From Candidatus Lustribacter sp. (lineage in GTDB: Bacteria; Vulcanimicrobiota; Vulcanimicrobiia; Vulcanimicrobiales; Vulcanimicrobiaceae), in NCBI GenBank assembly GCA_965277805.1, contig OZ255842.1, forward strand, positions 1,376,001 to 1,440,000: DNA of 64,000 nt. The letters are read 5' to 3'. Positions 30,713 through 46,751 of this stretch are shown here, piece by piece. A program made the translations under genes and the position numbers. The notes below the pieces were generated by a model. That model saw only the letters and a list, made by a program, of their open reading frames with translations, was not told the DNA's origin and searched no databases. Position 1 is the first letter of the stretch, and every line of letters begins with the position of its first letter.

Positions 30713-30731
30713 TCGAGTTCACTGGATGAAA

Positions 30732-30774: not shown

Positions 30775-30817
30775 ATGTCTACCGCCGCCGCGTCGCCTTT
30801 TGGAAGGTTTGGTGCAT

Positions 30818-31540
30818 ATGATCGCCACTGCCCAGCGCCCGGAACTCGTTGAAAAGCTTTCGAGCGAGCTGACCGCCCTGGCCATCGCGCAGTTCACGAG
30901 CCCGGAGTTTGAGCTGTACTTCAGCACCCCGCTGACGATGGACCGGGCGAAGTTCAACGCCATCCAAATGGTGTTCTACAATAACAACCGGCGCGAGGGC
31001 TGGGCGTTCGTTCAGGCACGGGCGCCGTGGGCAGTGAAACAAGCAATCTGGCACCACGAAGAGGACGAACTCTTCCACGACCCGCGCGCCGGCACCGACC
31101 ATCGCATCCTGATGTCGACCGAGGCCATCGCGCTCGGCGCAACAGACGCCGAGGTGTGGGCCGCCGAACCGACGCCGCTGATCGAAGCCGTGTTTGCGGG
31201 CTGGAACAGCATGAACGCGACCGATCCGTGGCTCGCCGCGCTCACGGGCTCGCACTTCCTCGAACGGCGCAACAACAGCAATCTCATTCCCGGCGGTGCG
31301 ATGTCGATGCGCTGGCGCAACAAGCTCGTCAAAGAACTCGGCGTCGCGCAAGACTCGCTCAAGTCGAGCAACGTGCACATCGTCGCCGATGTCGATCACT
31401 CCGATGCCATTTGGGACGCGGTCGCCGGCGGCATTTGCTCCGAATACGACTACGAAACGGCCCTGGCCGGCGCGCGCAAGGCCGCGCGTCTCGACCGCGC
31501 GTTTCGCGGCGCGCTCGCCTACGAGATGCGGGTCCGCTAG
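30818..31540 (+). CDS. Heme-oxygenase-like diiron oxidase (CADD/PqqC/TenA superfamily)
   Basis: HHEEDE...TDH, FLE, and H-x3-D-x2-H (VHIVADVDH) match the CADD-type ligand set; 240 aa. Confidence 0.75.
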   Translation: MIATAQRPELVEKLSSELTALAIAQFTSPEFELYFSTPLTMDRAKFNAIQMVFYNNNRREGWAFVQARAPWAVKQAIWHHEEDELFHDPRAGTDHRILMSTEAIALGATDAEVWAAEPTPLIEAVFAGWNSMNATDPWLAALTGSHFLERRNNSNLIPGGAMSMRWRNKLVKELGVAQDSLKSSNVHIVADVDHSDAIWDAVAGGICSEYDYETALAGARKAARLDRAFRGALAYEMRVR

Positions 31541-31542
31541 AC

Positions 31543-32550
31543 GTGGCGGGCGTCTCCCGCGCAGCGCTGCTCGGGGCCGGCGCGGCGGCTGCGCTGTCGA
31601 CCGCATGGGCACCGATCGCCCGGGCGGCAGCACCCTACGGCAAGCCGGAAACGGCTAACCTGAAGGTCGGCATTCCGCTCGACGCCACGTCGTATCTGCC
31701 CGTGTACTTGGCCGCGCAAACGACGTGGAAAGAGGCCGGGCTGAACGTCGAGCTGTTCGCCTTTCGCGGTGACGCGGAATCGTCGCAAGCATTGGCGGGC
31801 GATTCGATCGACGTCGATTGCGGATCGCTCTCGGGTTTGGTGAACGTGATTACGTCGGGGCAGCCGGTCATCGGCATTTACGGCGGTTTCAACGCGGCCG
31901 GCTTTTCGTGGTACGCGCAGCCCAACATGAAGTCGTGGAACGACGTGCGCGGCAAGTCGCTCGGCGTCTCGACCTTCGGTTCGACGACCGACGCGCTGAC
32001 GCGCTACGTGTTGCACCGCCACGGCATCGATCCCGAGAAAGACGCGCATCTCGTGCCGGTCGGCAACAACGTCAGCCAGTACCAGGCGTTGCAATCGAAC
32101 CGCACGCAAGTTGCGATGATCTCGGCGCCGGCCTCGTGGCAAGCGCAGGCCGCCGGCTACACGCTGCTGGGAACGCAGACGCGTGAGGTCGCCCCCGCCT
32201 GGCCCGAGCATATCTATTCGGTGAAGACGAAGTTCCTGGCCGCGAACCGCAATACGCTGGCAGCGCTGCTGCGGGGCCACGTCGCTGCTCTGCGGCTCGC
32301 GAAGGCCAACCGCGCGGCCGCGGTCCAGATCTTCATCGACCGGCTGAAGTACACGCCGGAATACGCATCGCGCTCGTACGACGAGCTGATGCCGACCTAC
32401 GATGAACGCGGCCGTCTCCCGGACCGTTCGATGAAAGTATTCTGGGATATCCTCGTGCACAACGGCGACGTCAAAGCGCCGATGCCGGACAGCGCAATCC
32501 TCGACCGTCAGTTCGTCGACTCGTTCGCGCAGTGGGCGCCGCCGGCGTAG
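31543..32550 (+). CDS. SsuA/TauA-like ABC solute-binding protein (subfamily C)
   Basis: GTG 31543; VSRAALL...ARA signal; FRGDAE..QAL, GVSTFGSTTD. Confidence 0.88.
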   Translation: MAGVSRAALLGAGAAAALSTAWAPIARAAAPYGKPETANLKVGIPLDATSYLPVYLAAQTTWKEAGLNVELFAFRGDAESSQALAGDSIDVDCGSLSGLVNVITSGQPVIGIYGGFNAAGFSWYAQPNMKSWNDVRGKSLGVSTFGSTTDALTRYVLHRHGIDPEKDAHLVPVGNNVSQYQALQSNRTQVAMISAPASWQAQAAGYTLLGTQTREVAPAWPEHIYSVKTKFLAANRNTLAALLRGHVAALRLAKANRAAAVQIFIDRLKYTPEYASRSYDELMPTYDERGRLPDRSMKVFWDILVHNGDVKAPMPDSAILDRQFVDSFAQWAPPA

Positions 32551-33372
32551 GTGATCGCGAAACCGCTACCGGAGCGCGATCCGGCCGACGAAGGACCGAT
32601 CGGGACGCTGGCGCGAGGATTACACGTTCTCTCGCGCGTTGCCGCAGCCCGTGGGCCGATCGGCGTGACCGAGCTCGCGCAGCGCTCGCAACTTGACAAG
32701 GCCACCACCTATCGCCTTGCGTGCAAGCTCGTCACGCTCGGCTATCTCGAGCGCGACGAAGACGGCAAATTTCACCTCAGCCTGCACGTGCTCGACCTCG
32801 GCTTCGCCTATTTGGCCTCGCTCGATCTGCGCACCCAAGCGCTGCCCGAAATGCGGCGGCTGCACGACGAGTATGACGGCGCGATCACGCTCTCGGTGCT
32901 CGACCAGACCGACATCGTCTACGTCGAACGCATCTCGCCGAAGGGCCTGCAGGCGAGCATGCCCGTCGGCGTCGGGGCGCGGCTGCCAGTGCACTGCACC
33001 GCAATGGGCAAGGTGATCCTTGCGAATATCGCTCCCGAGCGGCTGGCGCCGTTGCTCGAGCGCATGGAGTTCACGCAGTGGACGCAGCGCACGATCGGAA
33101 CGCGGGCCGCGTTCGAAGCCGAATTGGAGCGCACGCGCGCGCGCGGCTTCGGCCTGATCGATCAAGAGATGATCGAAGGGCTGCGCGCGGTGGCGAGCCC
33201 GATTTTCGACCGGCACGGTACGCCGATTGCGGCGCTCTCGGTTGCGTTGCCGGTCCAAGCCTGTAGTCTCGACCACCTCCTGGGTAGCGTTGGTCCGCGC
33301 GTCGTAACAGCCGGAAAGATCGTTTCATCTCATCTCGGCGCCGAAGGGGTTCGGCCGCCGGGGTTTCACTGA
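32551..33372 (+). CDS. IclR-family regulator (PcaR/PobR-like)
   Basis: LARGLHVL, KATTYRL, GARLPVHCTAMGKVILA, RARGF...DQE. Confidence 0.93.
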   Translation: MIAKPLPERDPADEGPIGTLARGLHVLSRVAAARGPIGVTELAQRSQLDKATTYRLACKLVTLGYLERDEDGKFHLSLHVLDLGFAYLASLDLRTQALPEMRRLHDEYDGAITLSVLDQTDIVYVERISPKGLQASMPVGVGARLPVHCTAMGKVILANIAPERLAPLLERMEFTQWTQRTIGTRAAFEAELERTRARGFGLIDQEMIEGLRAVASPIFDRHGTPIAALSVALPVQACSLDHLLGSVGPRVVTAGKIVSSHLGAEGVRPPGFH

Positions 33373-33383
33373 CGGAGCACGGT

Positions 33384-34514
33384 ATGGTTGATCTCGCGGC
33401 CGATCTCGAATTACGTCTGACGCGGGTGCAGAGCGCCATGCGCGCGGCCGCGCTCGACGGGCTCGTCATCTATTACGGCGGGCAGCACAACATGCTGCGC
33501 ATGGATCAGATCGCATACCTGACGGATTATCGCACTCTGGGGCCGGCGGTACTCGCCGTGCCGCGCGAGGGCATTCCGGAACTGATCATGTCGCCGGTGT
33601 GGGATGCCGAACGCGCTGAGGAAACCAAAGCGCGCGTGCGCGTCACCGCGGTTACGCCCGACCGCTTGCTCCAAACCGGCGCCGCCGTGGCGAAGACGCT
33701 GCCCGGACGCATCGGTCTCTCCGGCCGTCCGGTCATGCCGATTGCCGCGTTCGACGAGTTTTCGCGCGCGTACGGCGGCGAGCTGCTCGACGGCGAGACG
33801 ATCGTGACCACGGTCGGCGCGACGCGCACGCCGGGCGAACTCGAACGGGTCGAGCACGCCGCGAAGATCGCCGATCAGGGCTTCGAAGCGCTGCGCGAAA
33901 CGGTGCACGTCGGCATGCGCGAGTACGAATTGGCGGCCGAGATCGAGGCCGTGATGCACGCCGCGGGCGCCGAGGACAACTTCGGCTTGATCGCTGCCGG
34001 TTCGCACAACGTGGCCATCCGGCCGCCGACCGATCGCCGGCTCGAAGAAGGCGACGTAATCATCGGCGAGATCACGCCCTGCTATCGCGGCTATCTGGCG
34101 CAACTTTGCCGCACGTATATTTTGGGCGAACCGACCGACATCCAGCGTTCGACCTACGACATGCTGCTGGCCGCGCTGGTCGAGGGAAAAACCGCCGCGA
34201 AGCCGGGCCGGCCGAGTGCCGAGATCGCGCGCGCGATCAACGGCGTGATCGGCGCTGCCGGTTACGAAGAGTATTGCAAGCCGCCGTACATGCGCACGCG
34301 CGGTCACGGCCTGGGCCTCGGGGGTGTTGTTCCCTACGATATCACCGACGGCGCGAGCCCGAAGCTCGAGTGCAACATGACGATGGTGATCCATCCCAAC
34401 CAGTACGTTCCGGAAACCGGCTACATGATGTGCGGCGATACGGTCGTCATCGAAGAGAACGGCCCGCGCGCGCTCACCAAAACGCCGCTCAAGCTATACT
34501 GGAAAGAAGCGTAG
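33384..34514 (+). CDS. M24 (aminopeptidase P/creatinase) fold protein with altered metal site
   Basis: Creatinase-N-like start; GMREYELAAE, RRLEEGD, GYLAQLCRT, GHGLG, MVIHP, GDTVVI. Confidence 0.85.
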   Translation: MVDLAADLELRLTRVQSAMRAAALDGLVIYYGGQHNMLRMDQIAYLTDYRTLGPAVLAVPREGIPELIMSPVWDAERAEETKARVRVTAVTPDRLLQTGAAVAKTLPGRIGLSGRPVMPIAAFDEFSRAYGGELLDGETIVTTVGATRTPGELERVEHAAKIADQGFEALRETVHVGMREYELAAEIEAVMHAAGAEDNFGLIAAGSHNVAIRPPTDRRLEEGDVIIGEITPCYRGYLAQLCRTYILGEPTDIQRSTYDMLLAALVEGKTAAKPGRPSAEIARAINGVIGAAGYEEYCKPPYMRTRGHGLGLGGVVPYDITDGASPKLECNMTMVIHPNQYVPETGYMMCGDTVVIEENGPRALTKTPLKLYWKEA

Positions 34515-34518
34515 CTTC

Positions 34519-35667
34519 GTGCAAACCCTGCATACCGTACTCAAGCACGGCGGCTTGTTTTCGGATTGGGACCTGCTGCCGCGGCCGATGTTCGAAGGAC
34601 GCTACGCACGCATCCAAGCGGCCATCGCGGCCAGCGGCGACGATGCGTGGGTGATCTACGGCGATGCGCAGCGCTATGGCGACATCGCCTATGCGAGCCA
34701 TTTCGTGCCCCGTTTACGTTCCGTGCTCGTGCTGATTCCGAAGACCGGCAAGCCCGATCTGCTGGCGAGCATCGGTTCGCGCGACATCCCCGCATCGAAG
34801 ATCCTGACCTGGTTCGAGGAGATGCGACCGTACACGCGGTTGCCGGGCGAAGCCGTGAAGCTGATCAACGACCGGAATCTCAGCGCGGCGCGCATCGGGC
34901 TCGTCGGCACGCGCGTGTCGCTGCCGATCGCCGAATGGGACGCGATCGCGGCGGAGTTGCCCAACGTCACGTGGACGGAGCGCGATGCGGAGTTCGCCGA
35001 ACTGCGCCGCACGAAAGATGCGGCGGAAGATCTCGCCTTGCGCCGCACGGCCGAAGCCGTCGCCGCCGGGATGCGGGTTGCCGAGCACGCGCTGCGGCCG
35101 GGCCGCACCGTGCGCGAAGCGACGGCCGAGATCGATCGCGAACTGCGTTTCGCGGCCGCCGAAGACATCCGGATCATGATTGCGAGCGGCGCCGCCGCCG
35201 GCGTCGGCCTGCGGCCACCCGACGAACGCATGCTGCACGAAGGCGACACGGTGTTGCTGCACATTCAGCTCGAAGTGCAGCGCTACTGGTCGCAGGCCTC
35301 GCGCACGTTCGTGCTCGGAGATGCCTCGGGTTTGCAATCCAGCTTGACGGCGCATGCGGACGCGGCGCTGGCGGCAATGATCGCGCACGTCGCCGGCGGC
35401 GTTGCTGCGTCGGTCGTGGCGGCCGCCGCAAAGACGGCGCTCGGCGATGAGCTCTTTGCCGTAGCCCACGAATACGGTCTGGGTTCGGGGATCGGGCTCG
35501 ACGCGCACGAACCGCCCACGATCGCCATCGATTCAAACGAGGCGATCCCGAACGACGGCGCGCTCTCGCTGCACGTCGTGCTGCACGAAGACGGCTACGG
35601 CGCCATCGCCGGCAACACCGTACTGATTCGCAAAGGCGTTGCCACCGTGTTAGGAGCATCCGCATGA
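34519..35667 (+). CDS. M24-fold protein lacking canonical metal ligands
   Basis: LRRTKD, LRPGRT, EGDTVLLH, YWSQASRT, GSGIGLDAHEPP, GNTVLI. Confidence 0.82.
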   Translation: MQTLHTVLKHGGLFSDWDLLPRPMFEGRYARIQAAIAASGDDAWVIYGDAQRYGDIAYASHFVPRLRSVLVLIPKTGKPDLLASIGSRDIPASKILTWFEEMRPYTRLPGEAVKLINDRNLSAARIGLVGTRVSLPIAEWDAIAAELPNVTWTERDAEFAELRRTKDAAEDLALRRTAEAVAAGMRVAEHALRPGRTVREATAEIDRELRFAAAEDIRIMIASGAAAGVGLRPPDERMLHEGDTVLLHIQLEVQRYWSQASRTFVLGDASGLQSSLTAHADAALAAMIAHVAGGVAASVVAAAAKTALGDELFAVAHEYGLGSGIGLDAHEPPTIAIDSNEAIPNDGALSLHVVLHEDGYGAIAGNTVLIRKGVATVLGASA

Positions 35668-36653
35668 TCACACGCCGCGAGCTCATCGCTGCCGGGTTGT
35701 CCGCCGGCGCGCTGGGCGCGCTGGGCCGTCCGGCCGCGGCTGCATTCCCGCCGCCCGAACAGTCCAGCATCAAGGTCGGCACCGCGGTGACGGCGATGTC
35801 GTTTCTGCCGGTGTACGTCGCTTATGCGCGGACGTGGAAAGCGCAGGGGCTCGACGTGCAGCTCTTCCAGTTCCGCGGCGATGCGGAAGTTGCGCAAGCG
35901 CTGGTCGGCGGATCGATCGACGTGAGCTTCGGCTCGCTCAACGGCGTGATCAACATGATCTCATCGAACCAGCCGGTGATCGGGTTTTACGGCGGCTTCC
36001 AGCAAGCCGATTTCTCGTGGCTCGCGCAGCCGAGCGTCAAGCACTGGGGTGACATGAAGGGCAAGTCGGTCGGCATCTCGACCTACGGCTCGCTGACCGA
36101 CGCGCTCACCCGTTATGCGATTCGCCACAACAAACTCGATCCGGAGAAGGACGTGCAGGTCGCGCAGGTCGGCACGACCGCAAATACCTATCAGGCGCTG
36201 AAGTCGGGCCGCATCGGTGCCGGCATCCTTTCGCCGCCGTTCAGCTGGCAAGCGCAAGACGAAGGCTTCACGCTGATCGGCACGCAGAAGACCGACGTCG
36301 CGCCGAAATGGCCGAAGCATCTGATCAGCGCGAAGACCGCGTTCATCAACGCCAACCCGCACACGTGCGAAGCCGTGCTCCGCGGACACGTCGCCGCATT
36401 GCGTCTCGCGCACAAAGATCGCGAAGGCACGGCCCAAATCATGGTGGACCAGCTCAAGATCACGAAAGAGTTCGCCCTGCGCGCGGTCGACGTGGAGCTG
36501 CCGGATTACGACGAGCACGGCCTCATGCCGGAGAAGTCGATGCCGGTGTTCTGGGATATCACGAAGCAGCTGGGCGATGTGACGAGCGCGTGGGATGAGA
36601 ACAAGTACCTCGATCACCGGTTTATGAACTCGTTCAAGACGTGGGCCCCCTGA
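35664..36653 (+). CDS. SsuA/TauA-like ABC solute-binding protein (subfamily C), Tat signal
   Basis: MITRRELI; FRGDAE..QAL; close paralog of 31543-32550. Confidence 0.92.
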   Translation: MITRRELIAAGLSAGALGALGRPAAAAFPPPEQSSIKVGTAVTAMSFLPVYVAYARTWKAQGLDVQLFQFRGDAEVAQALVGGSIDVSFGSLNGVINMISSNQPVIGFYGGFQQADFSWLAQPSVKHWGDMKGKSVGISTYGSLTDALTRYAIRHNKLDPEKDVQVAQVGTTANTYQALKSGRIGAGILSPPFSWQAQDEGFTLIGTQKTDVAPKWPKHLISAKTAFINANPHTCEAVLRGHVAALRLAHKDREGTAQIMVDQLKITKEFALRAVDVELPDYDEHGLMPEKSMPVFWDITKQLGDVTSAWDENKYLDHRFMNSFKTWAP

Positions 36654-36662
36654 GGAGCATCC

Positions 36663-37484
36663 GTGGCGCATCTTGAGATCGATGGGGTCAGTCTCGCGTA
36701 TCCGAATGCGCGCGAGCACTCGACTTTTCTCGCGCTCGATTCCATCGGTCTCGGCGTCGAACGCGGCGAATTCATAACGATCGTCGGTCCGAGCGGCTGC
36801 GGCAAGAGCAGCCTGTTGATGCTCATCGCCGCGCTGCTGCAGCCGACCAGCGGCAGCATCCGGCTCAACGGGCAGCCCGTGGTCACGCCCGGATCGGATC
36901 GCGCGCTGGTCTTTCAAGACTTCGCGCTGCTGCCGTGGCGCACCGTGCTCAAGAACGTGGAGCTGGGACTCGAACTCAACGGCACGCCCGCGGCCGAACG
37001 GAAAGCGATTGCGCAAAAGTACATCGCAATGGTCGGTTTGCGCGAGTTCGAAAGTCACTTTCCGCATCAGCTCTCGGGCGGGATGCGCCAGCGCGTCGGC
37101 ATCGCGCGCGCGCTCAGCGTCGGCCCGGAAGTGCTCTTGATGGACGAGCCGTTCGGCGCGCTCGATGCGCAGATCCGTCAAGTGATGGCGGTCGAGCTGC
37201 TGAAGATCTGGGAGCGCGACCGTAAGACGATCGTGTTCATCACGCACGACATCGATGAGGCCGTGTTCCTGGCCGATCGCGTGATCGTGATGAGCGCTTC
37301 GCCGGGCCGCGTGATCGAGACGATACCGGTCGACCTGCCGCGTCCGCGACCGCTGACGCTGCGTAACCATCCCGATTTCGTGGCGTACCGCCAACGCATC
37401 TGGGATCTGCTCGAAGAGCAGGTCCGCTCTTCGCTCAACTGGCAGGCGAGCGATGAGGCGCCGCCTCTGGCTCCGGTGACGTGA
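36663..37484 (+). CDS. NitT/TauT-family ABC ATPase
   Basis: GPSGCGKS, FQDFALLPW, LSGGMRQR, LMDEPFGALD, ITHDIDEA. Confidence 0.95.
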   Translation: MAHLEIDGVSLAYPNAREHSTFLALDSIGLGVERGEFITIVGPSGCGKSSLLMLIAALLQPTSGSIRLNGQPVVTPGSDRALVFQDFALLPWRTVLKNVELGLELNGTPAAERKAIAQKYIAMVGLREFESHFPHQLSGGMRQRVGIARALSVGPEVLLMDEPFGALDAQIRQVMAVELLKIWERDRKTIVFITHDIDEAVFLADRVIVMSASPGRVIETIPVDLPRPRPLTLRNHPDFVAYRQRIWDLLEEQVRSSLNWQASDEAPPLAPVT

Positions 37485-38242
37485 GGCTCTCGCGCCGGCT
37501 GGTGGTCGGCTCGATCTCGGTGCTCGCGTTCCTCGCGCTGTGGCAGTTTGTCGGCCAGCGCGAGATCGTGCGTTCCGACTTGATCTCTTACCCGACCGAA
37601 GTGCTGGCCACGTTCGTTCACCTTACCTCGACGGGCGAGCTCGGGACGAACGCCGCGGTCACGTTGCAAGAGTTCATCGAAGGCTTCGTTCCGTCGGTCG
37701 TTATCGGCATCATATTCGGCGTCGCGCTGGCGTTGATCCGCCCGCTGCGCGAGTTGCTCGATCCGCTGCTGACCGCGATCTACAACGCGCCGGTGATCGC
37801 TTTCATTCCGATCCTCGTCGTGTGGTTCGGCGTCGGGACGTACTCCAAGATCGTGATCGTCTTTATCAGCGCGATCTTCCCGGTCATCATCAATACGCGC
37901 CTCGGCGTCTCGGAGATCGCCGAGCCGTGGCTGCGCGCGGTGCGCTCCTTCGGCGCCGGCCAGCTGCAGATCGTCACGAAGGTGATTCTGCCGGGTTCGA
38001 TGCCGGCGATCATGGCCGGTATTCGCCTCGGGCTCGGTCGCGCGATCGTCGGCTTAATCGCCGGCGAGATGTACGTTTCGCTCAGCGGCATCGGACGGAT
38101 GATTCAGGTCTACAGCAGCGCCGCGCGGTCTTCCGAGATCATCGTTTTGGTCGTCGTGATCGCCGTGTTCGGCTACGCGTGCGTCGCGCTCTTGCGGAGC
38201 GCGGAGAATCGATTGGGGACGTGGCGGTCGGATCTGGAGTAG
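37481..38242 (+). CDS. NitT/TauT-family ABC permease
   Basis: Hydrophobic; PVIAFIP...WFG, AVRSFGA, VILPGSMP..MAGIRLG. Confidence 0.93.
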   Translation: MRLSRRLVVGSISVLAFLALWQFVGQREIVRSDLISYPTEVLATFVHLTSTGELGTNAAVTLQEFIEGFVPSVVIGIIFGVALALIRPLRELLDPLLTAIYNAPVIAFIPILVVWFGVGTYSKIVIVFISAIFPVIINTRLGVSEIAEPWLRAVRSFGAGQLQIVTKVILPGSMPAIMAGIRLGLGRAIVGLIAGEMYVSLSGIGRMIQVYSSAARSSEIIVLVVVIAVFGYACVALLRSAENRLGTWRSDLE

Positions 38243-39027
38243 CGTCGCTACGGCCGATCGCGCTGCCGGCGTTCCGCTCGAAGAATCGCGCGACGCTGCT
38301 GGGCATTCTCGGCGTCGTCCTGTTCGTCGGCTTATGGGAGCTTGCGGCGCAGGTCGGCTGGCTCAATCCGGTCATCCTGAGCAGTCCGAGCCGCATCGCC
38401 GTGGCGTTTGCCGCGCAGTGGCAATCCGGGCAGTTCATCGCCGATCTGGGCGTGAGCCTCTCCGAACTCGTGATCGGCTTCGCGCTCTCGGCGGTGGTCG
38501 GCGTCGGCGTGGGCATCGCGATGGGCCTCAACCGCACGACCGAGTACGCGTTCGATCCGTTCGTCTGGTTTCTCTACTCGACGCCGCTGGTCGCGCTCTA
38601 TCCGCTGATCGTCGTGTGGCTCGGCTTCGGGTTCTGGACCGTCATTGCCATCACGTTTATGCTGACGGTCATTCCGATCGCGGTCAACACGCTCTCCGGC
38701 GTGCGCTCGGTCGATCCGTCACTCGTCGCCGCGGTGCGGGTGTTCGGCGGCACGCGAACCGATGTGGTTTTAAAGGCGGTGCTGCCGGCATCGTTGCCGC
38801 ACGTGATGGCGGGCTTCCGGATCGGGCTCAGCCGCGCGCTGATCGGCGTCGTCCTCGGTGAGATGTTCAGCTCCAACGCCGGCCTCGGTTTCCGGATGAC
38901 GGTCTACGCCGCCCACTTGAAAACGGCCGACGTGTTCGTGCCGCTGGTTGCTTTCGTCGCGATCGGGCTCGTGACGACCCAGTTGGCGCTGTTGCTCGAA
39001 GGGCGGCTGCAGAGTTGGAAGAGCTGA
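38221..39027 (+). CDS. NitT/TauT-family ABC permease
   Basis: Probable GTG 38221; PLVALYPL..WLG, GVRSVD, VLPASLP..MAGFR. Confidence 0.9.
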   Translation: MAVGSGVASLRPIALPAFRSKNRATLLGILGVVLFVGLWELAAQVGWLNPVILSSPSRIAVAFAAQWQSGQFIADLGVSLSELVIGFALSAVVGVGVGIAMGLNRTTEYAFDPFVWFLYSTPLVALYPLIVVWLGFGFWTVIAITFMLTVIPIAVNTLSGVRSVDPSLVAAVRVFGGTRTDVVLKAVLPASLPHVMAGFRIGLSRALIGVVLGEMFSSNAGLGFRMTVYAAHLKTADVFVPLVAFVAIGLVTTQLALLLEGRLQSWKS

Positions 39028-39052
39028 TACCGGGCCTGCCGAACCTATCCAC

Positions 39053-40375
39053 GTGTTAACTCAGCAAGCTGAACCGCTCAGCGCTCCCGGTAGTTGGGCC
39101 AGCCAATACATCCGGGGCGACCAGGTCAATTCGGAGATCTACACGAGCCCCGAAATCTTCGAGCGCGAAGTTCAGAAGATCTTTCACGCCACATGGAATT
39201 ACGTCGCGCATGAAAGCGAGATTCCCAATCACGGCGACTTCGTCACCCGCGTGATCGGCCGCCAGCCGGTGGTCGTCGTCCGCGGCGACGACGGCGTTGC
39301 CCGCGTCGTGATGAACCGCTGCCGCCACCGCGGCGCCCTCATTTGCGAAGTGCAGCGCGGCAGCCAATCGCACTTCCGGTGCTTCTATCACGGCTGGACG
39401 TACGACAACACCGGCAAACTGATCCACATTCCGAAAGACGACGGCTATCCGCCGGACTTCGATCTTGCCGCGTATAGCTTGACGCCGGCGCCGCGCGTCG
39501 ACACCTATCGCGGGTTTATCTTCGCCAGCGTCAACCCGTCCGTCGGCTCGTTGAAAGAATTCCTGGGGCTCTCGGCCGCCAAGATCGACCTGATGATCGA
39601 TGCGTCGCCCACCGGCGAGCTCTTTCTCGACGCCGGCATTCACAAGACGACGTATCGCGGCAATTGGAAATTCGTCGGCATGGACGGCTATCATCCGCCG
39701 GTGGTCCATCAGTCCGCCTTCGAGATCTTCCGGCGCAAGGCTGTCGCCGAACACGGCGGTGAAGACTCCGCCGCAGCGCAAGCCCCGCGCAAGACGATGA
39801 ACGAGTCGCCGCTCGCGGTTTCGCGCGATCTCGGCGGCGGGCACGTGATGCTTGACGTCGTGCCGCACCGCATCTCCGAGAAAGACCATCACCTCGCGTC
39901 GATGCGCCGCCAGCAAGACGGCGAAGCCTACATCGCTGCGATGACGGCGGCGTACGGCGCCGAGCGCGGCAGCGAGCTGATCGCCATCGGCGGCGACCCG
40001 CACCTCGGCATCTTTCCGAACCTGCAACTGATCAACCAGCACGTTCGCGTCACCGTGCCGATCGCCGCCGACCGCACCGATGTCTTCCTTTATCCGGTGC
40101 GCTTGGGCGGCGTCAGCGATGCCATGAACGAGAAACGTCTGCGCAAGCACGAAGAGTTCTACGGCGCCGCCGGTATGGGCCAACCCGACGACACCGAGAT
40201 CTTCGAACGCAACACCGACGGGCTGCAAGCGACCGTGAACCCGTGGATCGAACTCTCGCGCGGGCGCAACCGGGAATACGTCGATACCGACGGCTCGATC
40301 GTCGGCAAGATCAGCGACGAGGTCACGCAGCGCGGGCAGATGCGCGAATGGGCGCGCCTGATGAGCGCATCGTGA
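39053..40375 (+). CDS. Aromatic ring-hydroxylating dioxygenase alpha subunit
   Basis: HESEIP..GDF, NRCRHRG...CFYHGW, GNWK, DGYH....H, PDDTE. Confidence 0.95.
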   Translation: MLTQQAEPLSAPGSWASQYIRGDQVNSEIYTSPEIFEREVQKIFHATWNYVAHESEIPNHGDFVTRVIGRQPVVVVRGDDGVARVVMNRCRHRGALICEVQRGSQSHFRCFYHGWTYDNTGKLIHIPKDDGYPPDFDLAAYSLTPAPRVDTYRGFIFASVNPSVGSLKEFLGLSAAKIDLMIDASPTGELFLDAGIHKTTYRGNWKFVGMDGYHPPVVHQSAFEIFRRKAVAEHGGEDSAAAQAPRKTMNESPLAVSRDLGGGHVMLDVVPHRISEKDHHLASMRRQQDGEAYIAAMTAAYGAERGSELIAIGGDPHLGIFPNLQLINQHVRVTVPIAADRTDVFLYPVRLGGVSDAMNEKRLRKHEEFYGAAGMGQPDDTEIFERNTDGLQATVNPWIELSRGRNREYVDTDGSIVGKISDEVTQRGQMREWARLMSAS

Positions 40376-40854
40376 CCGTCATCGACGTCGACTTGCAGCG
40401 GGCGGTCGAGCAGTTCTTGTATCGCGAGGCGCGCGTCATCGACGCCAACGATTACAAGACCTGGATGACGATGTGGGCCGATGAGTGCATATACTGGGTG
40501 CCTAGCAACGACGACGATTCCGACCCGCAGAAGAAGGTCGCGCTGATCTACGACGATCACAAACAGATCGAGGATCGCGTGTGGCGTCTTTCCGGCATGC
40601 ACGCTCACGCGCAACGGCCCAAGTCGCGCCTTTCGCGCGTCATCTCGAACATCGAAATCGAGCAAAAGGGCGATGAGATCGTGGTCAACTCGGCCTTCGT
40701 GCTGTGCGAAGTTCGCAAGAACGAAACGCGGTTCTGGGCCGGACGCAATCTGCACGTGCTCGAGCAGACGGACGACAGCTTCGTGATGAAGTTGAAGAAG
40801 GTCATGCTCGCCAACAACGACACTGTCGTTTCGAACCTGACGTTCATCATCTAG
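40372..40854 (+). CDS. Aromatic ring-hydroxylating dioxygenase beta subunit
   Basis: GTGA overlap; EQFLYREAR.ID, YWVP, EDRV.RL, R.ISNI, KKVML.N. Confidence 0.92.
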   Translation: MTVIDVDLQRAVEQFLYREARVIDANDYKTWMTMWADECIYWVPSNDDDSDPQKKVALIYDDHKQIEDRVWRLSGMHAHAQRPKSRLSRVISNIEIEQKGDEIVVNSAFVLCEVRKNETRFWAGRNLHVLEQTDDSFVMKLKKVMLANNDTVVSNLTFII

Positions 40855-42030
40855 ATGCTACGTCAGGCTCTCGCCGCCGCGCTGCTCGCGTGTTTGACCG
40901 GGTGGTCCCTTCCGGCCGCAGCGCAGCCGGCGCCGGTCAAGATCGACGTCATCGCATCGCAGAGCGGCAGCTTCGCCTTCGTCGGTTCGCGCGTCATCGA
41001 CACGTTGAACGTCTTGCAGAAGGTCGTCAACGACGGCGGCGGCATCAACGGCAAGCCGGTGCAGTTCGTCTACTCGGACGATCAGTCGAATGCGGTGGTG
41101 GCGGTACAACTCGCCAACGCCGCGATCGCGCGCGGCGATCAGGTGCTGCTCGGACCGGTGTCGGCCGCCGCGTGCGCCGCCGTGATTCCGCTGACCGCGG
41201 CGAGCGGTCCGGTGAACTATTGCTTCTCGCCGGTGACGGTCGGGCCGCCGGGCGGTTACGTTTTTACCTCGGGTGCCGGAACCGCTTCGAACAACGTCGT
41301 GATGGTCCGGTTCTTTCGGAACAAGGGCTGGAAGCGGGTCGCGATCTTGGCTGCGACCGACGCGAGCTGCCGGGACGGGGAGCATTTCATCGACGATGCG
41401 CTGCGCATGCCCGAGAACCGCGAGATGCTGGTCGTCGCGCGCGAGCACTTCGCGCCGGCTGATTTGAGCGTTGCCGCGCAGGTCGCGCATCTCAAGGCCG
41501 CCGGGCCGCAGGCGATTTTGACGTGCGCGAGCGGCACGATCTTCGGGACCGTGCTGCACGGGCTCCACGACGCGGGCCTCGATCTTCCTACCGCGGCTTC
41601 GTCGGCCAACATGGTGTACGCGCAGTTGGCGGACTACGCATCGATCGTTCCGCGCGAACTCTATTTCGCCGCAACGCGCGGCATCGTACCCGACACGACG
41701 CTCGGAAAAGGCCCGGTCAAAGACGCGCAGGACCGCTATTTTGCCGCATTCCGCGCGGCTAAGGTGCGGCCGGAGTTTCAGGCGACGTTGGCTTGGGATC
41801 AAGGCATGATCGTGATCGCGGCGCTGCGCCATGCCGGCGGGCAGCCGACGGCGGCCAAGATCCATAGCTACATCGAAGACATTCACGACTACCCCGGCAT
41901 CTCGGGGATCTATTACTTCCGCGACAACAGCCAGCGCGGAATCGGGGAGAACGCGTTGCAAGTCTATCGTTGGGACGGACCAAAGGCGACCTTCGCGGTC
42001 GTAAGCCGTCCGGCGGGCCGGTTGAAGTGA
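40855..42030 (+). CDS. LivJ-like ABC solute-binding protein
   Basis: Signal peptide; VNDGGGINGKPV, DDQSN. Confidence 0.9.
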   Translation: MLRQALAAALLACLTGWSLPAAAQPAPVKIDVIASQSGSFAFVGSRVIDTLNVLQKVVNDGGGINGKPVQFVYSDDQSNAVVAVQLANAAIARGDQVLLGPVSAAACAAVIPLTAASGPVNYCFSPVTVGPPGGYVFTSGAGTASNNVVMVRFFRNKGWKRVAILAATDASCRDGEHFIDDALRMPENREMLVVAREHFAPADLSVAAQVAHLKAAGPQAILTCASGTIFGTVLHGLHDAGLDLPTAASSANMVYAQLADYASIVPRELYFAATRGIVPDTTLGKGPVKDAQDRYFAAFRAAKVRPEFQATLAWDQGMIVIAALRHAGGQPTAAKIHSYIEDIHDYPGISGIYYFRDNSQRGIGENALQVYRWDGPKATFAVVSRPAGRLK

Positions 42031-43439
42031 TGCGGACGACGACCGATATCGCGAGCGCCAAACAGCGGGCTTCAACGGCGCTGGAAATTGCCAAGGGCCT
42101 TGCGCTCAGTAACGACCGCCGTTTTTGGCAAGTCAAACTGGAGATTGCCGGCGCGGCCGGCGACGGCAAGGCGCTGGCGCTCTTCGCGAGCGACAATCCG
42201 GAGGGGATCGACGACGTCGTCGAGGGCCGCGCTGCGATGGCGCTCATCAACCCCTCGGTCGTGCTGACGCTGGCCTATCGCGGCACGGGTCCGTTCCGCA
42301 CACCGCAACCCGTTCGCGCGATCGCGGTCAACCCGTCCTATGATCTCTTTGCGTTCGTCGTGACGGCGGACACCGGCTTGACGAGCCTCGAAGACGCACG
42401 CGACAAGCGCTTTCCTCTGCGCATTTCGCTGCGCGGTCAGCGCAGCCACTCGATCCACTCCGTGCTCGACTGCGTCTTGGCTGCGGCCGGGTTTTCGGTG
42501 AAAGAACTCGAGAGCTGGGGCGGTTCGATCCATTACGAAACGGGTTTTGATTCGCCCACGAAATCGGGCTTCGATTCGCCGGCGCGATTGGAGATGGCCA
42601 AGGACGCCACGATCAATGCGATCTTCGATGAGGCCATCTGCCGCTGGCTCGACCCGGCGCTCGAGATGGGCATGAAAGCGCTGCCCCTCGGTTCGGCGAC
42701 CGTGCGCAACCTGGAAAAGATCGGCTTTCGCCGCAGCGTCCTCGATAAGGCGACGTATCCGCTGCTGGCCGGCGATGTCGAAACGATCGACTTCAGCGGC
42801 TTCGCGATCTTCGTTCGAGCCGATGCACCGGACGTGCTGGTGACCAGCATCTGCGCCGGCCTGGATCTGCGCCGCGCCGGCATTCCGTGGGAAGGCGCGG
42901 GCCCGCTCCCGATCGCGGACATGTGCCGCGATACGCCCGACGGCCCGCTCGACGTGCCGCTGCATCGGGCGGCGGAGCGCTACTGGCACGAGCACGGCTA
43001 CACGACCGAACCCCTGGATGCGAAGGGTCAAATTCATCCGCGCCGGGAGCCACCCGAACGTCCGCCCCGCATTCGCTCGATGTTGACGCTCGAGATCGCA
43101 TCGGAAATCCTAGCGCGCGCCGAGAGCGTTGCGACCGATGCGTTCTCGACGCGCATCCAGTTGCGGCAGCAAACGCAAGACTTCGACGTGTGGTTTGCGA
43201 CGATTCTGGCGGGCGAACCGCAGGCGTCGCTCGCCGCCGTCGCGGAAGGACGCGCCGATCTTGCAATCGTCGCCAAACCGTTTGCATCGGCGCTGCCCGT
43301 CCGCAGCATTGCGACGCTGGGCGATTGCGAACTGGTTTGCCGCTCGGAAACACCGGCCGACATCGTCGCGGCGTTCCGCGCGGCGGCGGAGGCCCGGAAA
43401 GCGCAACTCGACGTTCTTTGGAGAAACACGACGGCATGA
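42027..43439 (+). CDS. TAXI-like type II binding-fold protein without signal peptide, with an extra C-terminal lobe
   Basis: AYRGTGPF...VRAIA, GLTSLED, VPLH.AAERYW...GY; N-terminus is not hydrophobic; internal repeat. Confidence 0.7.
   Translation: MMRTTTDIASAKQRASTALEIAKGLALSNDRRFWQVKLEIAGAAGDGKALALFASDNPEGIDDVVEGRAAMALINPSVVLTLAYRGTGPFRTPQPVRAIAVNPSYDLFAFVVTADTGLTSLEDARDKRFPLRISLRGQRSHSIHSVLDCVLAAAGFSVKELESWGGSIHYETGFDSPTKSGFDSPARLEMAKDATINAIFDEAICRWLDPALEMGMKALPLGSATVRNLEKIGFRRSVLDKATYPLLAGDVETIDFSGFAIFVRADAPDVLVTSICAGLDLRRAGIPWEGAGPLPIADMCRDTPDGPLDVPLHRAAERYWHEHGYTTEPLDAKGQIHPRREPPERPPRIRSMLTLEIASEILARAESVATDAFSTRIQLRQQTQDFDVWFATILAGEPQASLAAVAEGRADLAIVAKPFASALPVRSIATLGDCELVCRSETPADIVAAFRAAAEARKAQLDVLWRNTTA
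42535..42581 (+). repeat. Imperfect 23/24-bp tandem duplication inside the CDS
   Basis: ACGAAA-CGGGTTTTGATTCGCCC / ACGAAATCGGGCTTCGATTCGCCG; protein TGFDSPTK-SGFDSPAR. Confidence 0.75.
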
Positions 43440-44419
43440 GCACAGGAAACCTCGATCGCGGCAACTTCATCAAGCTCGGCGCGCTGGCGTCGCTGGGTGG
43501 GGTCGTCTCGGCATCGGGAGCGGCTGCGGCGCAAGATCTCAAGACGGTCAACGTGCTGGCGGTGCCGACCGACGGCGCTAAATCGCTTTTGTACGCACAG
43601 AAAGCCGGCATCTTCCGCAAACACGGAATCAACGCCAGCGTCGTCTCGATGGGCAGCGGCGCATCGATCTTTGCGGCCCTGGTGGGTGGGGCCGCCGACA
43701 TCGGGTCGGGCAGTTTGTTTCCGGTCTTTGCCGCGTACGCGCGCAATTTGCCGTTGCGGATCATCGCACCGGCGTCGTTATACACGAGCGGCAACGCCGA
43801 CGCGCTGCTGCTGGTGCAAAAGGATTCGCCGATCCGCTCGGGCCGCGACCTCAATGGCAAGACGATCGGAGTCGATGCGATCAAGGATCTGTATTCCGTC
43901 GCGACGCGCGCCTGGGTCGATCAGCACGGCGGTGACGGCAGTTCGATCAAGCCGGTCGAGCTGAAGCCGTCGGAGCAAGCCGGTGCGCTGGAGTCCGGAC
44001 GCATCGACGCGGCGGTGTTCAAGACGCCGTTCGTTACGATTGCGATGGATTCGGGAAAATTTCGTCTGTTGGGCAAGCCGCTCGACGCGATCGGCTCGCG
44101 CTTCCTCGTCTCGGGCTGGGTGGCATCGGTCGATTTCATCAACAAGAACCCGGCGGTCGTGAACGGCTTCGCGCAAGCGATGGCGGAAGCGGCGAAGTAT
44201 ACGAACGCGCATCAATCCGAAACGACCGACCTCGTCGCCGCATTCACCGGGCAAGACGCGGCCCAAATCGGTCACGGCGTGCGCTCGCTGACGGCCGAGT
44301 CGATCACGCTCGCCGACCTTCAACGGCCGATGGACTTCGCGGTGAAGTACGGCATCATGGACAAGAGCTTCGACGTGGAGGGACTGCTGGCGCCGAGCGT
44401 CCCGCTCGGCAAGCGCTAG
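43436..44419 (+). CDS. SsuA/TauA-like ABC solute-binding protein (subfamily A)
   Basis: ATGA overlap; LDRGNFIK signal; LYAQKAGIF, DLNGKTI. Confidence 0.9.
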   Translation: MSTGNLDRGNFIKLGALASLGGVVSASGAAAAQDLKTVNVLAVPTDGAKSLLYAQKAGIFRKHGINASVVSMGSGASIFAALVGGAADIGSGSLFPVFAAYARNLPLRIIAPASLYTSGNADALLLVQKDSPIRSGRDLNGKTIGVDAIKDLYSVATRAWVDQHGGDGSSIKPVELKPSEQAGALESGRIDAAVFKTPFVTIAMDSGKFRLLGKPLDAIGSRFLVSGWVASVDFINKNPAVVNGFAQAMAEAAKYTNAHQSETTDLVAAFTGQDAAQIGHGVRSLTAESITLADLQRPMDFAVKYGIMDKSFDVEGLLAPSVPLGKR

Positions 44420-44428
44420 GAGCGCGTT

Positions 44429-45238
44429 ATGGCCGCCAAGCTGAACCACATCGCGATCATCAGCGAGAACTATGCGGTCTCGGCGCTGTTCTATGAGTCG
44501 CTGTTCGGGTTGCGCACGGCGGCCGGGGCACCGGTGCAGCGCGCGGTCACGGTCGGTGACGGTTATGTCGGTCTCAACATCAATCCGCGCAAAGCGGGCC
44601 GGCCCGCGCGGCTGGACCACTTCGGCATCGAGGTCGACGACATCGAGACCGTGCTCGACCGGATGCGCGCGGCGTATCCCGAAGTCGAATGGCTCAAGCG
44701 GCCGCCGACGCGGCCGTTCGCCGCAACGACCACCCACGACCCGGCCGGCAACGTGTTCGACCTCTCACAGCGCCGCGGCGGCGCGCAAAAGTATCTCTAT
44801 GCGGAAGACAATCCGCTCACGAAGCGCCACATCACGCATCTCGGCTTGCGCACGCTCCACGCCGAGGCGACGGCGAACTTTTACGTGCAGATGTTCGACT
44901 TCTCGCTCGAACAGCGGCCGGACGATCCCAACTTCTACGTTTCCGACGGTCACGTGACGATCGTGCTCATGCCGTGGCACATCGGCGATTACGACGGCAC
45001 GGGCATCGTCTCGCCCGCACCCGATCACATCGGCTTTACCGTCGAGAACCTGGACACGTTCCGCAGCGATCTTGGCCGGATCGTCGGCGACAATCCGCGG
45101 CTGGCGCCGATTCCGTTCGGGCAAGGAAGCGAAGGCCGTGCGCGCCTCGATCTGGCGCAGCGCAGCTGTCCACTCTGCACCGAACACCTCACCGACGTCG
45201 ACGGGATCATCCTCTCTGTCGCAACGGCGGTTGCATGA
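44429..45238 (+). CDS. Two-domain VOC (glyoxalase/extradiol dioxygenase) family protein
   Basis: LNHIAI...FY..LFG, LDHFGIEV, DPAGNVFDL; second module ITHLGL, DHIGFTVE, DVDG. Confidence 0.85.
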   Translation: MAAKLNHIAIISENYAVSALFYESLFGLRTAAGAPVQRAVTVGDGYVGLNINPRKAGRPARLDHFGIEVDDIETVLDRMRAAYPEVEWLKRPPTRPFAATTTHDPAGNVFDLSQRRGGAQKYLYAEDNPLTKRHITHLGLRTLHAEATANFYVQMFDFSLEQRPDDPNFYVSDGHVTIVLMPWHIGDYDGTGIVSPAPDHIGFTVENLDTFRSDLGRIVGDNPRLAPIPFGQGSEGRARLDLAQRSCPLCTEHLTDVDGIILSVATAVA

Positions 45239-46179
45239 TCGTGCGATGGCTCGGCTGTTCGCTGTTATCGCTCGTGCTGCTGACGGCCGGCGCAGCGCCC
45301 GGCACCGCGCAATCGCCGCTCGTGCTCCGTGTCGGACTCGTTGCCAACGACGATGCGGCGACACCGCTGCTCTATGCGCAAAGCGCGGGCCTGTTCGCAA
45401 AGGCCGGGCTCGACGTGCAGTTGCAGCTCCAGTCGAGCGGCGCCGCGGTGACGGCTGCGGTCATGGCGGGAACGTTCGACGTCGGCAAATCGAGCATCGT
45501 GCCGTTGATCAACGCGCATGCGCACGATCTGCCCGTTACGATCGTCGCGCCGGCCTCGGTTTGGAACGGTAAGGATAAGTTTGCGGCGCTGCTCGTTCGC
45601 GCCGATTCGCCGGTCAAGACGGGAAAAGATCTCGAAGGCAAGCTGATCGGCGTGCAATCGCTCAACGACATGAACCAGGTCGCGACCGACGCGTGGGTGA
45701 GCGCGCACGGCGGCGATCCCGCCACGCTGAAGTTCGTCGAGCTGCCGATGACCGCCGGCGTTGCGGCGCTGAAGAGCCGCCGGATCGATGCGGCCGCGTT
45801 CGTGGCGCCCGTCGTCGACGACGCGCTGGCCGACGGTCAGCTGCGGGCGCTGCCCGGCGCGTACGATGCGATCGCTCCGCAGTACTTGTTTGCTGCGTGG
45901 TTTTCTACCAAGGCGTGGGTGCACGAGCATCCCGACGCGGCGCGGCAGTTCGCGCGCATCCTGGCGGAAGCCGCGCAGTATACGAACACGCACCACGCGC
46001 AGACCGCGGCGATGGTGTCGCAGTTCACGTCGATCCCGCTCGATGTGATCGAGCACATGACGCGAACGCCGTCGGGAACGACGCTGAACGCATCGCTGCT
46101 TCAGCCCATCATCGATTCGGCGGTGAAATACAAGGTGCTCAGCCGCGGCTTTCCCGCGAGCGAGATGATCGGGGGCTAG
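45235..46179 (+). CDS. SsuA/TauA-like ABC solute-binding protein (subfamily A)
   Basis: ATGA overlap; signal peptide; LYAQSAGLFAKAGLDV, QPIIDSAVKY. Confidence 0.9.
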   Translation: MIVRWLGCSLLSLVLLTAGAAPGTAQSPLVLRVGLVANDDAATPLLYAQSAGLFAKAGLDVQLQLQSSGAAVTAAVMAGTFDVGKSSIVPLINAHAHDLPVTIVAPASVWNGKDKFAALLVRADSPVKTGKDLEGKLIGVQSLNDMNQVATDAWVSAHGGDPATLKFVELPMTAGVAALKSRRIDAAAFVAPVVDDALADGQLRALPGAYDAIAPQYLFAAWFSTKAWVHEHPDAARQFARILAEAAQYTNTHHAQTAAMVSQFTSIPLDVIEHMTRTPSGTTLNASLLQPIIDSAVKYKVLSRGFPASEMIGG

Positions 46180-46721: not shown

Positions 46722-46751
46722 GGCATTTCCTCCGGCAGGCTGTCTCATCGA

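Follow-up and report, generated by a model that had tools for sequence, protein, structure and literature searches.

The stretch of DNA analysed here, referred to as the window, comprises 64,000 nucleotides of Candidatus Lustribacter sp. and corresponds to C1:1376001-1440000, where C1 is the single 5.53-Mb contig of the genome; its nearest public relatives are metagenome-assembled genomes (MAGs) of the Eremiobacterota/Vulcanimicrobiota. We focus on an array of 16 plus-strand genes (g01 to g16) that spans positions 30818-46179 and that was proposed, in a preliminary description of this DNA, to encode a single undescribed catabolic pathway. The reading that we favour, with a probability of roughly 0.6, is a different one. 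In it, the array consists of at least three uptake-plus-enzyme cassettes (module 1, g01-g09; module 2, g10-g14; module 3, g15-g16), each inherited separately and joined in this lineage, which are probably co-transcribed and do not make up one dedicated pathway. The genes, many of which encode solute-binding proteins (SBPs), and the spacer that precedes them are as follows.

30713..30817, + strand: spacer of 105 bp with TTGACA, likely promoter region of the array
30818..31540, + strand: g01, heme-oxygenase-like diiron protein of CADD/BesC fold, module 1 (Haem_oxygenas_2, AlphaFold2, Foldseek)
31543..32550, + strand: g02, NMT1/SsuA-type SBP of a small subfamily, with signal peptide, module 1 (Pfam)
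32551..33372, + strand: g03, IclR-family regulator, module 1 (HTH_IclR and IclR_C)
33384..34514, + strand: g04 or M24a, pita-bread fold hydrolase with a non-canonical metal site (Peptidase_M24 and Creatinase_N)
34519..35667, + strand: g05 or M24b, degenerate paralogue paired with M24a (Peptidase_M24)
35664..36653, + strand: g06, NMT1-type SBP with Tat-like signal, part of the module 1 importer (Pfam)
36663..37484, + strand: g07, NitT/TauT-type ABC ATPase (ABC_tran)
37481..38242, + strand: g08, ABC permease (BPD_transp_1), syntenic in the relatives L014, L019 and L020
38221..39027, + strand: g09, ABC permease, last gene of module 1 (BPD_transp_1)
39053..40375, + strand: g10, Rieske oxygenase alpha subunit, first gene of module 2 (Rieske and Ring_hydroxyl_A)
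40372..40854, + strand: g11, Rieske oxygenase beta subunit (Ring_hydroxyl_B)
40855..42030, + strand: g12, LivJ-type SBP with signal peptide (Peripla_BP_6)
42030..43439, + strand: g13, cytoplasmic TAXI-fold protein of 469 residues (NMT1_3)
43436..44419, + strand: g14, NMT1-type SBP of an expanded family, travelling with the Rieske genes (Pfam)
44429..45238, + strand: g15, divergent two-domain vicinal oxygen chelate (VOC) protein of 269 residues, module 3 (Glyoxalase, twice)
45235..46179, + strand: g16, NMT1-type SBP of an expanded family, paired with the VOC gene (Pfam)

Open reading frame listing and start-site analysis bear out what had been said of the layout, namely that 16 co-oriented genes follow each other with gaps of no more than 25 bp. 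From g01 to g16 the spacings are 2, 0, 11, 4, -4, 9, -4, -22, 25, -4, 0, -1, -4, 9 and -4 bp; seven of the 15 junctions overlap and another two have zero gap, with g12 and g13 joined by a start-stop overlap. The only sizeable spacer is the 105 bp before g01, and this spacer with its TTGACA is kept in L089 and L001 despite an insertion of about 1.1 kb upstream of it there (labels of this kind denote contig loci of relatives). A scan of the array for consensus promoters and terminators gave results at chance level, and a permissive Rfam scan of 26000-48000 returned no match and no riboswitch clue. In Pfam terms, the first nine genes read Haem_oxygenas_2, NMT1, IclR, two Peptidase_M24 with Creatinase_N, NMT1, ABC ATPase and two BPD_transp_1, and the remainder Rieske with Ring_hydroxyl_A, Ring_hydroxyl_B, Peripla_BP_6, NMT1_3, NMT1, two Glyoxalase domains and NMT1, which matches the families and the order given in the preliminary description. 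The IclR gene is the third of the array and not the first. Five SBPs of the run, of the NMT1 and LivJ types, have a signal peptide. All 16 proteins score below the curated NCBIfam cut-offs, and therefore all assignments discussed here are at the family level only. An SDR or PdxA diol dehydrogenase, an alpha/beta hydrolase, a ferredoxin and a reductase were all missing from the Pfam matches within 30818-46179, in agreement with the earlier remark that the run lacks a cis-diol dehydrogenase, an alpha/beta hydrolase and a reductase.

The evidence for separate cassettes comes from gene order in relatives. A search with M24a gave 345 relatives in one-genome-per-species contigs, and the 80 loci kept, with 10-kb flanks, were searched with 26 window proteins by tblastn; a search with a Rieske-alpha alignment gave 152 relatives in metagenome contigs, from which 79 loci were retained. 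The full order of the array appears only in the near relatives L001 (96%), L021 (98%) and L089 (91%), at 88-99% identity overall. In L001 and L021 it is seen as far as the 10-kb flanks extend, and L089 has the whole array, including the VOC gene and genes beyond the array, as the sole such case among the 79 Rieske loci. In L021, a long-read MAG, the g01 orthologue (7429-8150) lies in three pieces in different frames, and the M24a orthologue (about 10001-11963) is matched only over residues 1-248, at 98%; these breaks could be frameshifts or assembly errors and not gene loss.

In more distant relatives the units stand apart. L005 (82%) has g01, g02, M24a, M24b, g06 and permeases in this order, without IclR and with no Rieske genes after them, and L002 (85%) has M24a, M24b and g06, without g01 or IclR. 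The most convincing single case is a Binatia MAG. Of two of its contigs, L003 starts within a g01 orthologue (72.6% over 73 residues) and continues with a g02 orthologue (73%), the adjoining IclR gene (57%), HyuA, HyuB and M24a (65%), and L020 opens with M24b (54%), followed by g06 (56%), the ATPase (79%) and two permeases, after which unrelated genes on the opposite strand begin (M48 peptidase, HD protein, Mrp-type ATPase and phosphofructokinase). From this gene order, g01-g09 is a unit in another phylum, where HyuA and HyuB come after IclR and before M24a, and the unit stops at the point at which the window goes on with the Rieske genes. Module 2 is likewise found by itself: L090, L091 and L092 (alpha 75-78%) carry alpha and beta together with g13 (67-72%) and g14 (65-69%), the order differing in each of the three, and have no M24, g01, IclR or VOC gene. 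L093 and L165 have alpha with g14-type (52-53%) and LivJ-type SBPs, without beta and without g13. At 45-58% identity, the Rieske loci share only the Rieske genes with the array, usually alpha and beta, and beta adjoins alpha in most of the 79 loci. Matches to M24a, M24b or the VOC protein were found in none of the 78 Rieske loci besides L089, and Rieske alpha or beta, g13 and VOC in none of the 80 M24 loci apart from near relatives. Among 150 other species of the phylum there was no orthologue of g01, M24a or g13, and Rieske alpha was represented by a 37% paralogue in one genome. The co-occurrence of the gene set that a single pathway would predict in other genomes does not extend beyond the three near relatives.

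Module 1 is headed by g01. Its Haem_oxygenas_2 score of 28 bits lies slightly below the cut-off of 28.9, and its AlphaFold2 model (pLDDT 92.9) has CADD/CT610 (1rcw) as the top Foldseek match, with TM-scores of 0.75/0.84, followed by BesC, TenA-like proteins, PqqC and UndA; the label "CADD-like" given to it at first sight is right at the fold level. Invariant in 26 sequences are H80, E81, E84, H95, H146, E149, H187, D191 and H194, and the family profile matches the 4-aminobenzoate synthase 9pj4 (E 4e-6) with the His/carboxylate columns (HxxE and HxxxDxxH) aligned. From its modelled fold and its conserved His/carboxylate ligand motifs, g01 is of the heme-oxygenase-like diiron oxidase type, with a predicted metal site. 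However, although it shares the fold of CADD (the 4-aminobenzoate synthase) and BesC, it is only about 16% identical to them and has invariant residues of its own, and its context is catabolic and uptake-related, whereas theirs is folate or natural-product synthesis.

Among the other genes of module 1, g02 belongs to a subfamily with only three copies in the genome. The regulator g03 has both domains of the IclR family (HTH_IclR E 1e-13, IclR_C E 4e-40), and its best NCBIfam match, the PcaR/PcaU subfamily, scores 193.7 bits, below the cut-off of 284.75; an IclR gene also lies 5' of the M24 pair in L039. An SBP of the g06 type comes after M24b in L002, L005, L014 and L020, and the SBP at this place in L019 best matches the g02 type. 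The ATPase g07 has SaoA and the taurine ATPase as its best NCBIfam matches, both under cut-off, and orthologues with 67-79% identity follow the M24 pair in L008, L014, L019 and L020. A guanidino ligand for the SBP subfamily of g02 and g06 was considered and dropped: the arginase-family neighbour at L174, which scores 298.5 against a cut-off of 227.6, is a true arginase, and the accessible part of a review on guanidine offered no transporter link.

The most unusual proteins of this module are the two M24 proteins. Both the pita-bread catalytic domain and the Creatinase_N domain are present (Pfam E 5e-36 and 2e-22). We take the ligands of the dinuclear metal site in the Pyrococcus prolidase 1pv9 to be Asp, Asp, His, Glu and Glu. 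When aligned with 1pv9, the prolidase positions D209, D220, H284, E313 and E327 correspond to E229, Q240, H308, H337 and G351 of M24a, which thus keeps one of the five ligands of a canonical M24B enzyme, and these residues are invariant in 14 homologues with identities down to 60%. In M24b, the first three ligand positions are occupied by H, Q and S, none of the three prolidase-like, and they are not conserved in the M24b family. These changes at the ligand positions indicate that the M24 pair is not a standard prolidase. We infer that M24a would be the catalytic subunit and M24b the structural partner of a putative heteromer; M24b lies directly 3' of M24a in 71 of the 80 loci.

In kind, the pair is closest, if weakly, to the non-peptidase branch of the fold with creatinase and ectoine hydrolase, whose members hydrolyse C-N bonds of small amidine or guanidino compounds. 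It has the same architecture of Creatinase_N and pita-bread domains as creatinase and the ectoine hydrolase DoeA, with weak matches to 1chm (E 4.6e-9), 6twk (E 3.5e-7) and DoeA models. It differs from them, however, in a score of 65 against a cut-off of 575 bits, in being a two-gene pair with a degenerate partner, and in its distinct E/Q/H/H/G set.

A more telling comparison is with a group of operons in which paired M24 genes accompany HyuA and HyuB. Of the 80 M24 loci, 48 have HyuA or HyuB. A Pfam scan of 14 loci showed both in 13 of them, where MmgE/PrpD, a bicupin, Amidohydro_2, a nitroreductase and a TctC or NMT1 SBP are frequent partners. These operons, from Rhizobiales, Chloroflexota, Binatia, Gemmatimonas and 'delta' MAGs, carry an M24a with 40-65% identity and M24b directly 3' of it, often share an NMT1 SBP and the same ABC importer, and have IclR in some loci. 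The array differs from them in that HyuA and HyuB are missing from the unit, the diiron protein heads it, and a Rieske cassette is appended. The operons themselves are uncharacterised.

HyuAB genes are present elsewhere in the genome. The closest orthologues of the pair in L003 (77/73% identity) lie at C1:690033-693820 and the next closest (73/69%) at C1:308650-312443. Around the latter, C1:303-319 kb (L178) has a Haem_oxygenas_2 protein, HyuB, HyuA, an M24-like gene, an NMT1 SBP and an Amidohydro_2 protein together, and the association of diiron protein, HyuAB, M24 and SBP is thus repeated in the same genome. At C1:684-700 kb (L177), SBPs and an FrsA-like hydrolase accompany HyuAB, an M24 gene and a Rieske gene. 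A second M24a/M24b pair (49%/43%) is found without HyuAB at C1:2623393-2625605 (L169), next to a divergent NMT1 SBP, an FAD monooxygenase and a type III polyketide synthase. A heme-oxygenase-like protein with 60-61% identity to that of L178 is encoded on two metagenome contigs (L109, 17882-18586; L136, 17410-18117), about 6-7 kb downstream of Rieske homologues with about 50% identity.

Module 2 begins with the Rieske oxygenase. The alpha subunit g10 has the features of an alpha3beta3-type Rieske enzyme, with invariant C90, H92, C110 and H113 (CxH..CxxH) and H214, H219 and D379. Its closest structures are those of IadD (9o71, E 1e-54; 7yls/8h2t, E 1e-52). Since its NCBIfam scores fall under the cut-offs (BenA 237.7 against 780.95, AntA 223.5 against 671.9) and it reaches IadD only at E 1e-54, g10 is not an equivalog of the benzoate, anthranilate or indole-3-acetate dioxygenases. 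Homologues of g10 and g11 with about 50-52% identity occur in classical operons on two plasmids. On Caballeronia zhejiangensis p3 the order is alpha/beta hydrolase, VOC, aldolases, acetaldehyde dehydrogenase, Rieske alpha and beta, ferredoxin, PdxA-type dehydrogenase, FAD oxidoreductase, MFS transporter and porin, and on pANTQ-1 of Sphingobium sp. AntQ-1 a PdxA-type dehydrogenase, an alpha/beta hydrolase and a catechol 2,3-dioxygenase stand with the Rieske genes; both have what we take to be a tph-like layout. In nine scanned metagenome loci, the Rieske genes are followed by PdxA in six and by an alpha/beta hydrolase in four. Because of this classical context of its homologues, g10 with g11 is placed, as far as sequence comparison goes, among the oxygenases of carboxylated aromatic compounds. 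A VOC-type enzyme is in the neighbourhood of both the array genes and the plasmid operons; however, where the latter carry PdxA, the alpha/beta hydrolase and lower-pathway genes, the window and the other Eremiobacterota versions have SBPs and g13 instead.

The iad locus of Variovorax resembles module 2 in that an alpha/beta Rieske enzyme, the closest solved relative of g10, stands beside SBP genes. As described in the accessible part of the iad literature, the indole-3-acetate oxygenase IadCDE acts as a monooxygenase and needs no diol dehydrogenase. Nevertheless, the window has no IadC reductase, CoA ligase, thiolase, dehydrogenase or amidase (IadF-J), and g10 is not an orthologue of IadD. Of the SBPs, g12 has an 80% orthologue after the Rieske genes in L092 and 65-67% orthologues next to alpha in L093 and L165, and g14 gives 262 tblastn matches in the genome. 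In the two loci last named, the Rieske alpha (L093, 4843-6159; L165, 9416-10735; 75-78% to g10), with no beta gene or g13 nearby, is followed by a polysaccharide-deacetylase-like gene and a TauD-like gene, respectively.

The remaining protein of this module, g13, has a TAXI domain (residues about 10-325) followed by a degenerate partial repeat (about 330-469). As a single query it has no PDB match, and it is by the family profile alone that the TAXI fold is recognised, through matches to the TAXI SBPs 9oz4, 4ddd and 1us4 (E 7e-18 to 4e-14); g13 also matches Atlas clusters at 0.96. Its 685 representative relatives are mostly about 320 residues long and have no signal peptide. For g13 itself, no signal peptide results from any possible start, nor was one seen in the homologues inspected, so the earlier view of a binding-fold protein without a signal holds. 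Although it shares its fold with the TAXI solute-binding subunits of TRAP transporters, it differs from them in the lack of an export signal, in the extra C-terminal repeat and in its context, since the Pfam scans of the window contain neither DctM nor DctQ. From these features g13 may be a cytoplasmic ligand carrier or a binding-fold enzyme. The genome has five copies of it. A constant place beside Rieske genes was considered for this family and is false for the four paralogues; the link between g13 and the oxygenase thus rests on the lineage of the window and L090-L092.

Module 3 consists of g15 and g16. The VOC protein has one conserved His pair per domain (H7/H64 and H137/H200), its best PDB matches are FosA (E 0.003) and Rv0577, so that it has no significant solved relative, and the Atlas clusters hold only unnamed VOC proteins of 267 residues. 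It aligns weakly, and in register, with the VOC proteins beside the Rieske homologues of about 50% identity (28-29% over about 130 residues, E 1e-5 and 8e-7). Compared with type I extradiol enzymes, H137 and H200 align with the VOC histidines of the classical operons; no conserved Glu was found, and there is no extradiol match in PDB or NCBIfam. Ring cleavage by g15 after the Rieske step is possible on this alignment. The genome has three paralogues of g15, two of them with their own SBP: the VOC-then-SBP arrangement returns at L172 (9302-11056), and a further copy at L173 has a divergent SBP. For g16, tblastn gives 268 matches in the genome. Right after the array, at 46176-48959, lie a convergent single-domain VOC gene (FosA-like, under cut-off), an NMT1 SBP and a flavoprotein resembling 3-hydroxybenzoate-6-monooxygenase (299 against a cut-off of 459); this region is kept in L089.

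The absence of a reductase and of other usual enzymes had led to the proposal that the unusual proteins fill the missing steps of a pathway. This argument turns out to be weak once the genome is considered. Crude gene calls give about 273 NMT1-type SBPs, or about 1 in 17 genes, against 32 NitT/TauT-type permeases (tblastn counts are 262-268), and no more than 29 of the 273 have such a permease within four genes of them; most NMT1 SBP genes adjoin enzymes. In addition, there are 85 LivJ-type SBPs and 85 LigXa-like Rieske proteins, at a gene density of about 93%. FNR-type reductase genes (NAD_binding_1) number only two for roughly 90 Rieske oxygenases, both distant from the window, and the window has no ferredoxin or reductase gene between 26 and 53 kb. 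By Pfam, the window as a whole holds 15 NMT1-type and five LivJ-type SBPs beside oxygenases, decarboxylases and hydrolases. From the abundance of SBPs and the two reductases, it follows that SBP runs and a missing reductase are the rule in this genome and not the mark of a special pathway. Moreover, some Rieske systems have no need of a diol dehydrogenase, as is the case for the anthranilate and 2-halobenzoate dioxygenases and salicylate 5-hydroxylase. Orphan expansions of binding proteins are known from the Bug/TctC family of Bordetella and Cupriavidus. The NMT1 expansion is similar in that hundreds of SBP genes, far more than there are permeases, stand beside catabolic enzymes, but it is of the NMT1/SsuA (and LivJ) type and is found in Eremiobacterota.

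As a chain of cassettes, the array would work in the following way. Transcription would probably start from the promoter before g01. Module 1 would be self-contained and under IclR control, with the diiron oxidase, two SBPs and a NitT/TauT-type importer, and the M24a/M24b pair. Given that HyuA and HyuB, an ATP-dependent ring-opening amidase, belong to the unit elsewhere, we infer that the module takes up a small nitrogen-containing compound (of lactam, cyclic amidine or ureide type) and cleaves C-N bonds in it; HyuAB is missing from the module in this lineage, with copies encoded elsewhere in the genome. In module 2, the two-subunit Rieske oxygenase would oxygenate an aromatic acid with the help of its own LivJ- and NMT1-type SBPs and the TAXI-fold protein, and would receive electrons from a reductase encoded in trans. 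The divergent VOC enzyme of module 3, with its own SBP, would carry out a separate step or maybe cleave the ring product of module 2.

Several points weigh against this reading. The module junctions are as tight as the module interiors (25 bp at g09/g10 and 9 bp at g14/g15), and together with the full order in L001, L021 and L089 this makes co-regulation and a functional link between the modules possible. The separate units are documented by few loci (L002, L005, L003 with L020, and L090-L092), mostly short metagenome contigs, and that L003 and L020 abut is deduced from their shared MAG name and matching ends. The genome figures are approximate, as they derive from a crude gene caller (4770 genes) that misjudged g13. 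Furthermore, the closest solved relative of g10 is an indole-3-acetate oxygenase, and according to transcript evidence in the accessible part of a preprint, skatole induces a Rieske oxygenase together with an M24 protein and a caprolactamase-like pair in Rhodococcus ruber R1 (bioRxiv 10.1101/2024.12.29.630347); both are precedents for a single N-heteroaromatic pathway. Finally, at C1:684-700 kb, HyuAB lies between the M24 and the Rieske gene.

Such a pathway would employ all 16 genes as one streamlined, undescribed route for a nitrogen-containing aromatic compound of the indole, oxindole or anthranilate type, in which the Rieske enzyme would oxidise the ring, the VOC protein would cleave it, the diiron protein and the M24 pair would take care of the C-N steps, and the TAXI-fold protein would serve as an enzyme or as the carrier of an intermediate. 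To the spacing, the shared order, IadD, the skatole-induced cluster and the HyuAB locus can be added the weak register of g15 with the VOC proteins of classical Rieske operons, and an ENA contig of 94,489 bp that apparently holds M24a (85%), g01 (73%) and Rieske alpha (84%), the three being joined by the equal size of the contig. Yet all of the more distant relatives seen have the units separately, no M24 locus beyond the near relatives has Rieske alpha or beta, g13 or VOC genes, nor does any Rieske locus besides L089 have the M24 pair or VOC. The SBPs and the missing reductase are genome-wide features, the homologues of g10 at about 50% stand in classical operons, and the remaining iad genes are absent. 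We therefore consider one pathway unlikely. Of the original proposal, an operon-like array with unusual proteins and no described match survives, while the single pathway is countered by the separation of its units in relatives. No characterised pathway with this set came up in the literature searches or in the Pfam and NCBIfam scans, the only partial parallels being in what was accessible of the skatole preprint and the iad papers.

Two further explanations fare worse. The M24 pair might be an ordinary Xaa-Pro dipeptidase or aminopeptidase, in which case the unit would serve peptide scavenging; automated annotation does name it 'Xaa-Pro dipeptidase', and its best PDB and NCBIfam matches are prolidases. 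All NCBIfam scores are nevertheless far under the cut-offs (112 against 630), the replacements at four of the five metal-ligand positions are invariant in the M24a family, none of the three aligned positions is prolidase-like in M24b, and the conserved partners are HyuAB, MmgE/PrpD, a cupin and Amidohydro_2, not peptide transporters, all of which renders a prolidase very improbable. The genes might also have come to lie side by side by chance in a gene-dense region, with one promoter per cassette and no shared transcription or regulation, which would suit both the independence of the modules elsewhere and the gene density. Against this stand the overlapping and zero-gap junctions, including the start-stop overlap of g12 and g13, the lack of a terminator-like signal above chance, and the position of the sole sizeable spacer, with its conserved TTGACA, before g01; chance juxtaposition is accordingly quite improbable, and the concatenation of probably co-transcribed cassettes is preferred to it.

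Other parts of the window also deserve mention. Just upstream of the array, at 29136-30712 on the + strand, lies a gene for an unassigned protein of 177 residues, with a CMD-like paralogue at 19607-20260, and with it genes for a RibD_C-type pyrimidine reductase and a CDA-fold deaminase. The latter two resemble a split and reversed RibD-like pair and score under the RibD cut-offs; the group is kept in L001 and L021. At 2875-10230, two MetE-like (Meth_synt_2) genes, a LigXa-type Rieske gene, a formyltransferase and SBPs look like a cassette for aryl O-demethylation and one-carbon metabolism.

As such, the array is a new version of a familiar composite catabolic and uptake operon; the M24/diiron unit and the cytoplasmic TAXI-fold protein within it are uncharacterised. 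Should the array work as one N-aromatic route after all, which we think doubtful, it would use three parts without precedent in such pathways. These would be, with as little confidence, a TAXI-fold enzyme or carrier for a Rieske oxygenase, a heteromeric M24 enzyme with a His/His/Glu-type site instead of the dinuclear centre, and a CADD/BesC-type diiron oxidase in catabolism. Even with independent modules, the M24 heteromer and the diiron oxidase would, if real, be a new C-N-cleaving system that spans phyla, and g13 a new intracellular use of a transporter binding-protein fold.

The array illustrates that, in an uncultured soil bacterium, many genes packed closely in a row do not have to form a single pathway and that relatives at 50-85% identity can resolve it into cassettes. 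The unit of diiron oxidase, IclR, paired non-canonical M24 proteins and importer, usually with HyuAB, is conserved in at least eight bacterial lineages without an assigned reaction, and a cytoplasmic TAXI-fold family travels with a Rieske oxygenase in the array. Worth an experiment are the diiron/paired-M24 unit with or without HyuAB, this TAXI-fold family and the orphan expansion of NMT1-type SBPs. With about 1 in 17 genes encoding NMT1 SBPs, which stand beside oxygenases, the genome suggests a way in which Eremiobacterota of peat and soil scavenge a multitude of aromatic and nitrogenous compounds present at low concentration.

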